From Parcubacteria group bacterium ADurb.Bin159 (GTDB lineage Bacteria; Patescibacteriota; Patescibacteriia; UBA2591; MWDC01), in NCBI GenBank assembly GCA_002070355.1, contig MWDC01000001.1, positions 67,994-131,993 on the forward strand: 64,000 bases of DNA. The letters are read 5' to 3'. The translations under genes were made by a program, and so were the position numbers. A model generated the notes under the pieces. That model did not search any database. It was not told the origin of the DNA and saw only the letters and a program-made list of their open reading frames with translations. This document shows positions 25,009-56,367 of this stretch, one piece after another; the first letter of the stretch is position 1, and each line of letters opens with the position of its first letter.

Positions 25009-25084
25009 TGGCTCCGGGGGTGGGACTCGAACCCACGACAGGCTGCTTAACAGGCAGCTGCTCTAACCACTGAGCTACCCCGGA
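25009..25084 (-). tRNA. tRNA-Asn (GTT), CCA encoded
   Basis: Manual cloverleaf: acceptor UCCGGGG/CCCCGGA, D-arm GCUC-AGUGGUUA-GAGC, anticodon loop CU-GUU-AA, T-arm GUGGG-UUCGAGU-CCCAC, discriminator G plus CCA. Confidence 0.85.
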
Positions 25085-50771: not shown

Positions 50772-51866
50772 TTAATCGGAAAAAGATATTTTATTTTGAT
50801 AAAATTCTTCTTCGCTTATATCAAAAATGTGTTTAGCTAAATAAGAGAGCTCTTTAAAATCTCCTGTTCTGGGACGAAGAATGTAGGCGCCATTTGATGC
50901 TACAGCTGGTTTTAACAAATTTTTATCCGAAAGAACAAATGTTCTAACGTTCCAAGAACTTGTATCTTGAAACAATTTTGCTAAACGGGTTGCTTCTTTC
51001 AAAGTTAAATTAGTTTTAATTTTTGAAGTGAAAAAATTATAAAAATAAAAAATTTGCTTTGTGTCTAAAATATCAATTTGTTTTATCTTTTCTTTTAAGG
51101 CTAATAAAACTTGCTGTTGCCTAGCCGAACGGTTAAAATCTGAACCGCTTTCACCATTACCATGTCGAGACCTTACGTATTCTAAAACCCTTTCTCCGTC
51201 CATTAGTTGAAGCCCGGGAGAAAATTTTACTGTTCGATAAGAATAATTTGGTCCGGGAAAAGAATAATCAATGAAGCCTTCTTTAACATCAATAGTCACT
51301 CCCCCAAACCAATCTATCAATTCTATAAAACTATTAAAATCAATTGCCGCCCAATATTTAACAGGAATATCAAACACGTCTTCTATTACTGAACAAATTG
51401 CTTTTCCTCCATCTTTTTTTTGAAAAGTGCTTAAAGCATAAACAGCATTAATTTTATTCCACCCACCATCAATGGGTATATAAAGATCGCGAGGGACGGA
51501 AAGTAAGGATACAGTATGAGATGATGGTTCAATACTTAAAAGAATTATAGTGTCTGTTAAATACGGTCCCTCGTGCCCTTCTCCCCCCATACCTAAAAGT
51601 AAAATATTTATTCTATCGGAATATTCACCAGCTAATACTCCACTGCGGCCAAAAATAATATTTAACGTCCCTTCCCAAAAAGAAAGATGACCAAATCCAT
51701 CTAAAGTACTTTGTTCTAAAACAATAGTTCCTAAACAAAAAAATGCCACGATTAATAAGCAAAAAAGAATTAAAAAGGGTATTTTCCTTTTTGGTTTTTT
51801 TTTCTCTTGTTTTTTCTCCTCCTCTTTAGGAACTGCTTCGGCGAAATTTAACTTGATATTATCCAT
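50772..51866 (-). CDS. LytR-CpsA-Psr (LCP) family protein
   Basis: N-terminal TM followed by NILLLGMGGEGHEGPYLTDTIILLSIEP...VPRDL. Confidence 0.75.
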   Translation of the reverse strand: MDNIKLNFAEAVPKEEEKKQEKKKPKRKIPFLILFCLLIVAFFCLGTIVLEQSTLDGFGHLSFWEGTLNIIFGRSGVLAGEYSDRINILLLGMGGEGHEGPYLTDTIILLSIEPSSHTVSLLSVPRDLYIPIDGGWNKINAVYALSTFQKKDGGKAICSVIEDVFDIPVKYWAAIDFNSFIELIDWFGGVTIDVKEGFIDYSFPGPNYSYRTVKFSPGLQLMDGERVLEYVRSRHGNGESGSDFNRSARQQQVLLALKEKIKQIDILDTKQIFYFYNFFTSKIKTNLTLKEATRLAKLFQDTSSWNVRTFVLSDKNLLKPAVASNGAYILRPRTGDFKELSYLAKHIFDISEEEFYQNKISFSD

Positions 51867-51905
51867 ATTTATGCTACAATTTTATCTATTAATAACAAAC
51901 AACAA

Positions 51906-51976
51906 GCGGGATTAGTTGAGCGGCTCAACATCACTCTTCCAAGGTGAAAAGACGGGTTCGACTCCCGTATCCCGCT
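51906..51976 (+). tRNA. tRNA-Gly (TCC), no encoded CCA
   Basis: Manual fold: acceptor GCGGGAU/AUCCCGC, D-arm GUUG-AGCGGCU-CAAC, anticodon loop CU-UCC-AA, T-arm ACGGG-UUCGACU-CCCGU, discriminator U73 (typical for Gly). Confidence 0.75.
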
Positions 51977-52430
51977 TCTTTACTTTGTAATAACTCCTTA
52001 CAAGACAAAATAATTCTACTTAAATAGAAGTATGTCGAACCCGAGGAAAGGGGTCGGGAAAACCTGGGTTTTCCCGTGGCGGAAGTACTGAAACCGAAGG
52101 GTTTCAGGGAGCGAAGCGACGGGGCGACTCCCGTATCCCGCTTTTTAATTTGCTCTTTCTTTAGGGTAATAAATTTTAAAAATTGGTCAAGCCCCAAATC
52201 ATTCAAATTCAAAATTTAAAGTCATTTATTATGACTTTTTTATATTGAATTTAATCATTTTTTTGCTAAAATTAAATTATAAAATTTTTATTTCAAGGAT
52301 TTTTACTCTGTCTTTCTGTAGGGTTGATTGACTTACCGGAAATTAAAGGAAAAAAATATTCTGTTTAAAAAATAAATTTAAAAAACGAAGAATACCTTAA
52401 TAGGCAAATTTTACCCGAAATATAGAAATT

Positions 52431-53918
52431 ATGAAAAAAAATTTAATTTTTTATATTATTATTATTATTTTAGTTATTTTATTTTGTTTAATTATTTTTC
52501 TTATGACCTCTAAAAATACTTCTCTAATTAGACAACCGGCTGTAACTGGAATTTTTTATCCAAAAGATAAAGAAAAACTATCTCGTATGATTGATAGTTT
52601 TTTAGCTAAAGCTGATACTATTTCCTTAAAGGGAAAACCGCAGATTATAATTGTGCCTCATGCGGGTTATGAGTTTTCTGGCAGCGTGGCTGCTTATGGA
52701 TTTAAAACCTTAGAAAATAAAAATTATAAAAGAGCCATTATTATTGGCCCGTCTCATCAAAGTTATTTTTCCGGCTTTGCCATTAGCCAAGCTGATTTTT
52801 GGCAAACCCCTTTAGGAAAAATAAAAATTGATAAAAATCTGCGAGAAAAAATATCCAAAAATAATAATTTGATTTTTATTTCTGATAATGCTCATTTAAA
52901 TGAACATTGTTTAGAAGTGGAAGTCCCCTTTTTACAAAAAATCAATCCTCAAATAAAAATTTTACCTATTATTATTGGACCGTATAATCCCCAACCAGAA
53001 GTATTGGCAAGTGTTTTAGAAGAATATTTGGATTCTTCCACTATTCTTATTATTTCTTCTGATTTATCTCATTATCCTCCCTATGAAATAGCCAAAGAAA
53101 GAGATGGGGAAGTTATAAAAGCAATTTTAGAATTAGATAAAGAAAAATTTTCTACTATAGTGAAAGATTTAGATGAAGCTAATAATTTAGTTACCCGCGC
53201 TTGCGGAGAAGAAGCCATAAAAATCGGATTTATTTTAGCTGAAAAATTAAAATTAAAACCCTATCTTCTAAAATACGCTAATTCCGGCGATACAAATGGG
53301 GATATTAATCAAGTTGTTGGTTATGCCTCTATTGCTTTTTTAACTGAAAATAAAAATGATATAAGCGCTCTTAGTCAAAAAGATAAACAAGAACTTTTAT
53401 CTATTGCCCGTGATTCTATTGACTACTATTTAAAAACAGGGAAAATCCTTGAAGTTCAAACTAAAAATCCATCTCTTTTAAAACCGCAGGGAGCTTTTGT
53501 TACTTTAAAAGAAAATGGGGAATTGCGGGGATGTATAGGAAATTTAACAGCAAATAAGCCATTGGCGGAAACTGTAGCTTATATGGCAGTAGAAGCTGCT
53601 TTTGGCGACCCAAGATTTTTATCCTTAGAGAAAGAAGAATTATCTAAAATTAAAATTGAAATTTCTGTTCTTTCTCCCTTAAAAAAAATAAATGACCCTT
53701 TTACAGAAATAGAAATAGGCAAACACGGAGTACTTATAGAACAAGGAAATCGTTCCGGCGTATTTCTCCCCCAAGTGGCTACAGAAAATAATTGGAGTTT
53801 AGAAACTTTTATGGATGAGCTTTGTCTTTATAAAGCTGGTATTTCCCCTGACGCCTGGAAAACTGGCCAAGCTGATATTTATGTTTTCACTGCCGAAGTA
53901 TTTAGCGAAAAAGAATAA
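52431..53918 (+). CDS. Memo1-like (DUF52) and AMMECR1 domain fusion protein
   Basis: N-terminal IIVPHAGYEFSG (Memo/extradiol-dioxygenase-like fold). C-terminal GAFVTLKENGELRGCIGN (AMMECR1 signature). Confidence 0.7.
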   Translation: MKKNLIFYIIIIILVILFCLIIFLMTSKNTSLIRQPAVTGIFYPKDKEKLSRMIDSFLAKADTISLKGKPQIIIVPHAGYEFSGSVAAYGFKTLENKNYKRAIIIGPSHQSYFSGFAISQADFWQTPLGKIKIDKNLREKISKNNNLIFISDNAHLNEHCLEVEVPFLQKINPQIKILPIIIGPYNPQPEVLASVLEEYLDSSTILIISSDLSHYPPYEIAKERDGEVIKAILELDKEKFSTIVKDLDEANNLVTRACGEEAIKIGFILAEKLKLKPYLLKYANSGDTNGDINQVVGYASIAFLTENKNDISALSQKDKQELLSIARDSIDYYLKTGKILEVQTKNPSLLKPQGAFVTLKENGELRGCIGNLTANKPLAETVAYMAVEAAFGDPRFLSLEKEELSKIKIEISVLSPLKKINDPFTEIEIGKHGVLIEQGNRSGVFLPQVATENNWSLETFMDELCLYKAGISPDAWKTGQADIYVFTAEVFSEKE

Positions 53919-53983: not shown

Positions 53984-54631
53984 TTACTTTTTTTGCTCCC
54001 ATTTTTTCCGTTTCTTTAAAGCCACATAATTCGGCTTTAATTCTTTCTTCCGTTTATCTCTATATTTTCTCCTTTTTTTTCTCAATCGCCTAAGATAAGC
54101 TTTTGCTTTAGGCGACAGATTAAAATCCCAATCCCGACAAACTGATTTTCCTGTTTTGTGATCCCGATAATTGGAACATTTCCAATACCGGGACTTCATT
54201 CCTTTGCCCCGAGCGATTACCATAAACTTCCCGCATTCTGGACAATGCGGCCGATGCTGAATTCTCCATTGGGCTATCCATGCCTGGGACAAAAGATTTT
54301 TAGCAAAATTTTTCGTCCTATGTAATGGATGAGATGAATACAGAATATTCTTTCTTATTGCGTCTCGGATGATTACCCAGCCCGAATCTGACTCTCGGGC
54401 CTTATTTTCCTTTAAAAGCCAAGTTGTCCACACGACAACTTCTAAACCGTTAACCGTATATCGAAAACCGACCTCTCTTCCTTTTGTTGATCGAGGACTC
54501 TTTAAATTCTCAATCTCCTTTTGTATTTCTTTGGGACTTATTTTCTCAAAACCCCATTGGAAGACGAGGGTGTCCTCAATATAATAAAAATCTTCTCTCT
54601 TAATTTTTTCCTTGAATGAATTCTCAGACAA
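53984..54631 (-). CDS. Hypothetical protein with a Cys4 zinc ribbon and a highly basic C-terminal tail
   Basis: CPECGKF...CSNYRDHKTGKSVC, then a K/R-rich ~45-aa tail. Confidence 0.4.
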   Translation of the reverse strand: MSENSFKEKIKREDFYYIEDTLVFQWGFEKISPKEIQKEIENLKSPRSTKGREVGFRYTVNGLEVVVWTTWLLKENKARESDSGWVIIRDAIRKNILYSSHPLHRTKNFAKNLLSQAWIAQWRIQHRPHCPECGKFMVIARGKGMKSRYWKCSNYRDHKTGKSVCRDWDFNLSPKAKAYLRRLRKKRRKYRDKRKKELKPNYVALKKRKKWEQKK

Positions 54632-56204: not shown

Positions 56205-56294
56205 AATTTAGATTATAACAAAAAAGAAAAAAAGAAAAAGGGCAACTTAATGTTGCTCTTATTAAATACAATGTTTCCCCTCTTTTTTGTTTAG

Positions 56295-56367
56295 AGGGGT
56301 TGGCTGGAATCGAACCAGCATGAGCAGGCTTTCGCGCCTACTGCGTTGACCACTCCGCCACAACCCC
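56295..56367 (-). tRNA. tRNA-like gene with canonical acceptor, D and T arms but a non-canonical (6-nt) anticodon loop; isotype undetermined
   Basis: Acceptor GGGGUUG/CAACCCC, T-arm GCUGG-UUCGAUU-CCAGC. The central hairpin UAGGC-GCGAAA-GCCUG does not give a standard 7-nt loop. Confidence 0.5.

Follow-up and report, generated by a model that had tools for sequence, protein, structure and literature searches.

Why does the 3′ end of an intact tRNA gene recur a short distance downstream, beyond a GC-rich interval that can fold into hairpins? The question is raised by a 64,000-nt stretch of the genome of Parcubacteria group bacterium ADurb.Bin159 (contig MWDC01000001.1 of assembly GCA_002070355.1, positions 67,994 to 131,993; hereafter, the window), in which the gene for tRNA-Gly(UCC) is followed by a second copy of its own terminal segment. 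An initial annotation of this stretch had interpreted the duplication as a footprint of site-specific integration (attL/attR), left behind by near-complete deletion of an element, or as part of a small structured RNA linked to the tRNA. Here, we examine the 166 nt at 51978-52143, that is, the segment between the repeats plus one repeat copy. On balance, we consider this block likely to be a complete, non-autonomous integrative module devoid of open reading frames (ORFs), which is mobilized in trans and belongs to a family of such modules in Patescibacteria. The family has apparently not been described previously and has so far been seen only in Patescibacteria.

Within the 64 kb, CGACTCCCGTATCCCGCT is found exactly twice, at 51959-51976 and 52125-52142, and the next T is also common to both copies, so that the exact repeat spans 19 nt (51959-51977 and 52125-52143), with a start-to-start distance of 166 nt. 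An imperfect leftward extension of copy 1 begins at 51951 (GACGGG(TT)CGAC in the tRNA versus GACGGG(G)CGAC in copy 2), yielding a repeat of 27/26 nt in which TT is replaced by G; with rightward extension, the repeat reaches 27 nt at 89% identity. The initial annotation had recognized both the recurring tRNA end and the T-run behind it (TTTTT at 52142-52146, directly after copy 2), but had placed the second copy at 52127-52150, an interval which starts approximately 2 nt off and enters the T-run. The gene itself is left intact, and it is the second copy of its 3′ end, at the right border of the module, that creates the direct repeat. ARAGORN called tRNA-Gly(tcc) at 51905-51978, whereas no tRNA was called in copy 2 or its surroundings by either ARAGORN or Rfam, and a second tRNA or transfer-messenger RNA at this position was accordingly rejected. 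The repeat is short, and chance or local replication slippage could be invoked to explain it; however, shuffled sequences are expected to yield 0.01 chance matches to CGACTCCCGTATCCCGCT even when 3 mismatches are allowed, the architecture recurs elsewhere and the insert is GC-rich and structured, making such an origin hardly credible.

That the block is an insertion became evident from relatives, namely, contigs encoding LCP homologues with 58-62% identity. Two of these (L023 and L027) maintain the LCP/tRNA-Gly/Memo-AMMECR1 gene order and show an empty site, with the tRNA being directly followed by TT(T/C)TAATTT...AATTGGTCAAG (TTTTAATTT...AATTGGTCAAG), the sequence which in the window stands after copy 2; the covariance model of the module (see below) has no match in either of them. 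Because the tRNA of both relatives runs straight into the post-copy-2 sequence, the window carries 166 extra nucleotides flanked by the repeat, and the T-run behind copy 2 corresponds to the trailer that, at the empty sites, stands immediately after the tRNA. In a third relative (L024), guaA is found downstream in place of Memo. Its tRNA-Gly gene precedes a 57-nt spacer that can be aligned with that of the window, an identical left arm (GTCGAACCCGAA) and the core up to its midpoint, beyond which the module has decayed. L025 and L026, whose LCP protein is that of L024, are missing another 104 nt. Excision was considered as an explanation for this difference between L024 and L025 but was rejected, as the alignment corresponds to a deletion between GAA microrepeats in a decaying copy. 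Thus, alignment with the tRNA-Gly loci of relatives bears out the insertion footprint, and the block, being absent in two relatives and decaying in a third, is not an extension conserved behind tRNA-Gly in all of them and unlinked to mobility.

More than 10 independent assemblies from this species contain the entire stretch with 98.6-100% identity; hence, it is not an assembly artefact. Anaerobic-digester samples that contain the species include JGI 3300010346, ENA ERZ27249272, and GCA_029564315.1. The only variants observed within the block are a 1-nt deletion of A52038, which is absent in 4 contigs, and the substitution C52001A. Eight independent contigs of the species (L013 and L016-L022) end at scattered positions within 51876-52070, which could reflect either heterogeneity among strains or reduced coverage of the structured, GC-rich block; none of them displays an alternative junction. 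The diagnostic junctions would be GACGGGTTCGACTCCCGTATCCCGCTTTTTAATTTG / GACGGGTTCGACTCCCGTATCCCGCTTTTTAATTTGCTC for the empty site and GCGACGGGGCGACTCCCGTATCCCGCTTCTTTACTTTG / GAAGCGACGGGGCGACTCCCGTATCCCGCTTCTTTACTTTGTAAT for a circle or an excision product.

What, then, has been inserted? The interval 52034-52142 has a GC content of 61.5%, compared to 33% for the window, and is preceded by a 57-nt spacer with 23% GC. No ORF of at least 40 aa lies wholly between the repeats, and neither an integrase fragment nor any other ORF remnant is present there; the region has just two ORFs of this length, 51931-52212 (minus strand) and 52076-52219 (plus strand), both of which extend beyond copy 2. A 20-mer from the core of the block, GGAAAGGGGTCGGGAAAACC, matched 34 metagenomic loci, one of which (L034) looks like a chance match. 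The covariance model built from 26 of the cores (R1) recovered 31 cores with scores of 50-90 bits, including second and third copies in L030, L036, L041, and L044. A compact, ORF-less layout of approximately 90-170 nt is found at about 30 unrelated loci, with the parts arranged as follows: gene 3′ end, spacer, left arm, junction, hairpin P2, junction, hairpin P3, RRAGC, hairpin P4, GACG, an altered copy of the target segment (S′) and an exact copy of the rest of the gene end. The spacer ranges from 0 to 100 nt and contains a terminator-like hairpin in approximately 9 loci. The absence of ORF remnants between the repeats, together with recurrence of the same layout at some 30 unrelated loci, makes the insert look like a complete small module.

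These observations bear directly on the possibility that the repeats are attL and attR of an integrase-encoding island or prophage which has been gutted by internal deletion, leaving 148 nt of junk. Elements with a tyrosine integrase are classically recognized by a directly repeated tRNA 3′ end that begins in the T-loop, and the empty sites in relatives are compatible with such a history. By contrast, the inter-repeat content is a conserved, covarying module, which recurs without change in size or layout at about 30 other loci and at many different targets, and in which fragments of an integrase or of any ORF are absent; phages, plasmids and viral contigs showed no similarity to it; a full-length element with an integrase between the left arm/core and the repeat was found in none of the 34 loci; and one integrase could not serve tRNAs of 10 isotypes as well as the ends of protein-coding genes. 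We therefore consider a gutted island very doubtful, and the near-complete deletion proposed initially is not supported. A classical attL/attR pair generated by a tRNA-specific integrase is likewise a poor fit, because the same core is found behind many tRNAs, rpsI, pgk, and smpB. The other proposal of the initial annotation, a small structured element linked to the tRNA, was essentially right, with the block belonging to a family defined by a conserved two-hairpin core, and both hairpins quoted in that annotation are real (P2 and P3; Table 1).

The two hairpins are conserved and covary. Across the family, the core consists of the purine-rich junction GGAAAGGGGUC, P2 (GGGAAAACC/GGUUUUCCC), a second purine-rich junction (G.G..GGAAGUA, sometimes with an extra hairpin) and P3 (UUGAAACC-loop-GGUUUCAA), followed by RRAGC and the variable hairpin P4, often GCGAAGC. 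P2 and P3 positions are paired in 99.2% of cells, and covariation exceeds that in all 500 shuffles and all slid controls; pairs 5-8 of P3 each show 2-5 Watson-Crick pair types across 15 distinct variants. The 120 P3 cells contain no G.U (G.T) pairs, and approximately a dozen P3 hairpins have a GNRA-like loop when read on the gene strand. GC-rich blocks with unrelated cores are located behind tRNA-Asp in L036 (6157-6310) and tRNA-Leu in L038 (505-660); these contain an antisense T-arm segment inside and an imperfect copy of the 3′ end of their own tRNA at the end, and several module families may share this architecture.

The targets of the modules are diverse. Approximately 19 cores are located at most 150 nt 3′ of a tRNA gene on the same strand, the isotypes being Met, Phe, His, Arg, Leu, Glu, Ala, Gly, Ser, and Asp. 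Other cores are found 9-57 nt past the stop codons of protein-coding genes, among them rpsI (L044 and L051; C-terminus ...RRAPQWAKR), pgk (L048; ...GGGAMLEYL...ALKK) and smpB (L056). The orientation of the module is always that of the upstream gene. In 18 of the 32 modules, an exact repeat of at least 12 nt, reaching 48 nt at most, is shared between the gene end and the sequence following the core. The length of the repeat is variable (12-51 nt), with the right junction of the module being precise and the left junction varying; at tRNA targets, the left border of the repeat is fixed in the T-loop whereas its right border varies, and homology often decays beyond the exact part. In L048, the 48-nt exact repeat corresponds to the last 16 codons of pgk, and the second copy maintains the frame and the stop codon.

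The left arm is antisense to the gene end, reading ...ATCGAAC (anti-T-loop) at tRNAs and often continuing into the T-stem and the acceptor. In 19 of the 21 modules, the upstream region is a stronger pairing partner for the 24 nt preceding the core than is the tail of the module itself, the partner in approximately 17 of the 19 being the native T-arm or gene 3′ end, typically in a perfect duplex of 13-20 bp. In the window, the left arm GTCGAACCCG is antisense to CGGGTTCGAC (51953-51962), and a 10-nt inverted match was reached in 10 of 5000 shuffles (p ~0.002). S′ is an altered copy of the target segment, usually modified around T-loop positions 54-56 (GTGAGAT for GTTCGAT in many tRNA cases, deletion of TT in the window), although the native T-loop is kept in L046; the alteration results in a bubble or bulge in the arm/S′ helix at these positions. 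In the window, S′ is able to pair with the left arm, with an AA bulge remaining. The arm of L057 (AGCAGGAATCGAAC) matches a tRNA-Arg-type T-arm, as in L041, better than that of the neighbouring tRNA-Gly, suggesting either that a module takes its arm along when it moves or that recombination occurs between modules.

Modules have also been gained or lost between relatives. In the related loci L030 and L036, the first tRNA-Met is followed by a module in both, whereas the second tRNA-Met and tRNA-Asp differ in this respect; L036 and L041 contain 2 cores each, the latter with a weak third match, and L030 contains 3. Tandem modules are present at one target in L044 and L030, and some genomes carry 2-3 modules per 10 kb, compared to the single copy in the 64-kb window. 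The window host is a Parcubacterium, and the two hosts that were checked are both Patescibacteria. The most GC-rich host locus is L062 (55% GC, compared to 33-49% for the other family loci), and all named relatives of its RecG are Paceibacterota, Minisyncoccia, or Patescibacteria.

Table 1. Features of the tRNA-Gly locus and of the module inserted behind it (positions in the window).
Feature	Position	Strand	Remarks
Promoter-like site of tRNA-Gly	51853-51880	+	TTGATA-16-TACAAT, TG before second hexamer; consensus match only (10/12 positions), 25 nt upstream of tRNA
tRNA-Gly(UCC)	51906-51976	+	Intact, no encoded CCA; Rfam RF00005 over full length, 58.6 bits (threshold 29)
Direct repeat, copy 1	51959-51977	+	3′ part of T-loop, 3′ strand of T-stem, 3′ strand of acceptor, discriminator, 1 further nt
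AT-rich spacer, part of the insertion	51978-52033	+	23% GC; not in empty sites L023 and L027; aligns with L024 spacer
Left arm GTCGAACCCG	52034-52043	+	Perfect antisense of T-stem 5′ strand and T-loop (51953-51962)
Conserved 64-nt core	52045-52108	+	Covariance model R1: 87.2 bits, E 3e-15
Core junction GGAAAGGGGTC	52045-52055	+	
Hairpin P2, GGGAAAACC/GGTTTTCCC	52056-52064 / 52067-52075	+	
Core junction GTGGCGGAAGTA	52076-52087	+	
Hairpin P3, CTGAAACC/GGTTTCAG	52088-52095 / 52100-52107	+	Loop GAAG
P4 mini-hairpin GCGAAGC	52111-52117	+	Variable hairpin at same position in other family members
S′	52118-52124	+	Imperfect copy of T-stem 5′ strand and T-loop start: GACGGGG versus GACGGGTT in tRNA
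Direct repeat, copy 2	52125-52143	+	Followed by trailer known from empty sites (T-run 52142-52146, then ...AATTGGTCAAG)

How might such a module move? A single-stranded form of the module, either DNA or RNA, would fold such that the arm pairs with the imperfect copy, and the resulting duplex, with a small bubble at T-loop positions 54-56, could mimic the target. The module would then be joined to the gene just 3′ of the mimicked segment by a factor that is encoded elsewhere and may be a recombinase, a nuclease, or a reverse transcriptase. Alternatively, the arm could serve as a guide by pairing with the target itself. Joining might proceed by a single crossover within the shared 3′ end with a small form of the module, probably a circle, which would carry the imperfect copy, the replacement 3′ end, the spacer, the arm and the core, or by insertion at a staggered cut with a long and variable target duplication, both routes leading to the same product. 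The crossover route fits better, because the exact match is confined to the conserved gene end, with identity fading to either side of it (L048 and L031), because some modules carry their own terminator and trailer, which are unlike the local ones (L035 and L047), and because the window spacer is shared with L024, the genomic context of which is different. Lack of G.T pairs in P3 and the terminators upstream of many modules speak for a single-stranded DNA form, as does the fact that GCGAAGC and GNA/GNRA loops are very stable in DNA; conversely, the GNRA-type loops, the gene-matching orientation and the position behind highly expressed genes speak for RNA. Fold-back priming was considered as the origin of the left arm and rejected, as the arm in L031 is separated from its template by the native terminator, which is itself duplicated.

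The RNA-based version of this scheme deserves separate consideration. In RNA-mediated retroposition, target-primed reverse transcription of a co-transcript would yield a bacterial counterpart of short interspersed elements or of the R2-derived short internally deleted elements (SIDEs). The precise right junction combined with the variable repeat length and left junction would be expected, the modules reside behind highly expressed genes in the gene orientation, and reverse transcriptases of diversity-generating retroelements are common in this phylum. However, the 5′ arm is antisense rather than sense to the upstream target, which is the wrong polarity for second-strand priming; no reverse transcriptase was seen near the modules; terminators are located upstream of many of them; and no 5′-truncated copies or A-rich tails were noticed, although these were not counted systematically. 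Retroposition is thus improbable.

An unlikely alternative is that the block is a structured RNA serving the host, possibly a domesticated element, transcribed with or after tRNA-Gly. The arm could pair with the 3′ half of the tRNA or with the copy behind the core and thereby control maturation, stability, or termination, or the core could bind a protein. The extreme conservation of the core across many genomes, the covarying hairpins, the GNRA-type loops on the gene strand in about a dozen P3 hairpins, the invariant orientation relative to the upstream gene, the limited variation of the module across strains of the window species and the complementarity of the arm to the native tRNA are all consistent with this possibility, and transcripts beginning shortly ahead of the arm would be expected from a weak promoter-like site at 51985-52014. 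On the other hand, the block is missing in two syntenic relatives and decaying in a third, the host genes are unrelated (tRNAs, rpsI, pgk, and smpB) and each comes with a duplicated 3′ end that would be needless for RNA function, terminators separate the gene from the module in several loci, P3 is free of G.U pairs in all 120 cells, and no Rfam family matches.

Several observations weigh against a module mobilized in trans, which we nevertheless favour. Neither a trans-acting enzyme nor an excised form was found. All same-species contigs spanning the site carry the module, with no empty allele in this species, and the module is variable at 1 of 122 sites compared to 12 of 275 in neighbouring intergenic DNA, a difference which is only suggestive (p = 0.07). 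The window copy is atypical in having a short arm and a minimum-free-energy fold without P2, and tRNA-Gly is the only module carrier in the window, the other four tRNAs being free of modules. A strong terminator is located between gene and module in approximately 9 family members, making simple co-transcription less likely. Furthermore, the family was collected with one exact 20-mer, so that its true breadth and diversity may differ from those seen here, and conservation of this 20-mer across many genomes could equally reflect a host function.

If modules are indeed mobilized in trans, they might constitute a new class of programmable integrative elements, a suggestion we put forward tentatively and regard as possible rather than probable: a single-stranded nucleic acid of about 100 nt would combine a target-address arm, a scaffold and a replacement 3′ end. 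The arm would address the target by being antisense to the final conserved motif in an essential gene, the two-hairpin scaffold would recruit the trans-acting enzyme, and, across Patescibacteria, the module would home without any gene of its own, either into the T-loop of a tRNA or into the 3′ end of a gene such as rpsI or pgk. Should our interpretation hold, Patescibacteria genomes contain widespread unannotated, gene-less insertion modules, which apparently rely on base complementarity to select conserved gene ends and which restore the sequence that they interrupt. This would explain the GC-rich islands and duplicated tRNA ends in these tiny genomes, provide a marker for recent gene flow among uncultured bacteria and point to a trans-acting enzyme that works on a small, structured, guide-like nucleic acid. 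Systems composed of a guide-like nucleic acid and an enzyme have repeatedly been turned into genome-engineering tools. Even as a host RNA, the module would be a strongly conserved structured motif missing from Rfam.

No convincingly recurrent neighbour gene was found across 33 loci. Small stand-alone ORFs resembling GIY-YIG nucleases (~85-91 aa) are located approximately 0.1-1 kb from modules in three unrelated loci (L032, 5932-6189; L033, 2593-2853; L063, 839-1114); the one in L063 lies between two tRNAs and is missing in the related L058, and none is present in the window. A gene of the CCA-adding enzyme/poly(A) polymerase family directly follows the tRNA-Arg module in L041 (2484-3959), L058, and L063, two of which are close relatives, and this adjacency may be plain synteny. 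With three loci each, both are too weak to be called module partners.

The window is bacterial in its gene content, which includes murG, ftsW, mraY, tgt, and aspS. The genes neighbouring the module encode an LCP-family and a Memo-AMMECR1 protein, both of which are also present at the empty sites. A 215-aa basic protein with a zinc-ribbon-like CPECG...C motif and no Pfam match on record (53984-54631, minus strand) is kept beside the Memo-AMMECR1 gene in relatives, where it is 169 aa long in L027. Among species-representative genomes, the fused Memo-AMMECR1 protein matched only Aenigmatarchaeota (DPANN archaea; L001-L003, 42-44% identity), which may be an artefact of exact-peptide seeding. As for the other tRNA genes, tRNA-Asn, tRNA-Ser, and tRNA-Phe (3′ ends at 25009, 33836, and 63197) encode the CCA that tRNA-Gly(UCC) lacks (51976-51978). 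At 56294-56367 (minus strand), ARAGORN called a tRNA with a 4-base anticodon 'cgaa' and unassigned isotype (Rfam, 51.2 bits), the anticodon arm of which has a 7-bp stem (AGTAGGC/GCCTGCT) and the 6-nt loop GCGAAA, or an 8-nt loop; this is either an unusual tRNA or a miscalled one.

Searches against known RNA families and mobile elements returned no identity for the module. Rfam 15 (4227 models) yielded tRNA-derived matches only over 51850-52250, which includes the spacer and copy 2 (E up to 10), and no match over the cores of 7 other loci (E up to 1). Phage and plasmid records and viral contigs contained no match to the module, apart from a single degenerate-pattern match inside an integrase coding sequence, which was judged to be due to chance, and no description of such modules was found in the literature searched, sequence strings included. 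Small ribozymes (hammerhead, hairpin, hepatitis delta virus (HDV)-like, twister-sister, and hatchet) were dismissed, with no Rfam match and an unfit layout; an HDV-like arrangement of P2 and P3 is excluded because the target-arm loop in L041 is only 11 nt long. Resemblances to RNase P or signal recognition particle RNA motifs (GAGGAAAG...) were dropped as short string matches. Peptide coding was rejected, as the Shine-Dalgarno-like GGAAAGGGG has no suitably spaced start codon and the insert contains no ORF. An intrinsic terminator of the tRNA was also considered, but a scan of 51700-52450 identified none.

The closest known systems include tyrosine-integrase islands and prophages, along with their integrase-less derivatives, the cis-mobilizable elements (CIMEs), which similarly insert at the T-loop or 3′ end of tRNA genes, rebuild the gene, displace the original end to form a direct repeat, leave empty sites in relatives and form tandem arrays at one site. 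Unlike these, the module is gene-less, measures 166 nt and consists mainly of a conserved structured core, with one core occurring at many tRNA isotypes and protein-gene ends next to a target-antisense arm. In the attP(+) hairpin of CTX-phi and the attC sites of integrons, a single strand folds so that the duplex of its arms mimics a recombination site. The module resembles them in having two imperfectly complementary arms with a bubble or bulge and in forming very small, ORF-less units that can be arrayed; there is also a loose likeness of the left arm ATCGAAC and the T-loop GTTCGAT to the R″/R′ boxes RYYYAAC and GTTRRRY. However, the junction deduced for the module follows the T-loop GAT, whereas the crossover by IntI or Xer on such folded sites occurs at G|TT, conservation in the module is highest between the arms, where attC is most variable, and the arms of the module change with the target.

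The bridge RNA of IS110 and the omega RNA of IS200/IS605 elements (TnpB/IscB) share with the module a structured non-coding scaffold and a target-complementary flank, but are encoded beside their own recombinase or nuclease gene, generate no long target duplication and have dissimilar scaffolds, as judged from Rfam; in the window, no cognate recombinase or TnpB/IscB gene adjoins the module, and both identities were rejected. R2 retrotransposons and SIDEs also insert site-specifically into a conserved, highly expressed RNA gene, contain an internal target-complementary segment, exist in short ORF-less forms and produce variable target duplications, but are eukaryotic, depend on reverse transcriptase and carry a 5′ HDV-like ribozyme, a fold which does not fit the module. 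MITEs (miniature inverted-repeat transposable elements), Rickettsia palindromic elements and yeast mitochondrial GC clusters are, similar to the module, small, ORF-less, hairpin-rich GC islands of AT-rich genomes, with several copies per genome, often behind genes and tRNAs. They have a short fixed target duplication or none, lack a target-specific antisense arm and do not rebuild the gene 3′ end. As judged by MITE criteria, the module has imperfectly inverted arms, a 19-nt duplication and no ORF, but its inverted repeats are target-derived and locus-specific.

Patescibacteria tRNA genes also harbour group I introns, which are located in the anticodon loop (PMC13011429). Although the phylum and the kind of host gene are the same, and the arm of the module, 5′-(anti-3′ part)(anti-5′ part)-3′ beside a structured core, resembles a group I internal guide sequence, the tRNA is uninterrupted and the core of approximately 64-100 nt is too small for a group I fold. 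A group I intron was rejected for the window, where the tRNA is intact without splicing, the two-hairpin core is 64 nt long compared to at least ~200 nt for P3-P9, and there is no Rfam intron match. Formally, the layout of 5′ guide, scaffold and 3′ homology resembles that of a prime-editing guide RNA. Collectively, we rate the module as a combination of known kinds, in which a miniature, gene-less mobile element is joined with an integration that restores the 3′ end of a tRNA.

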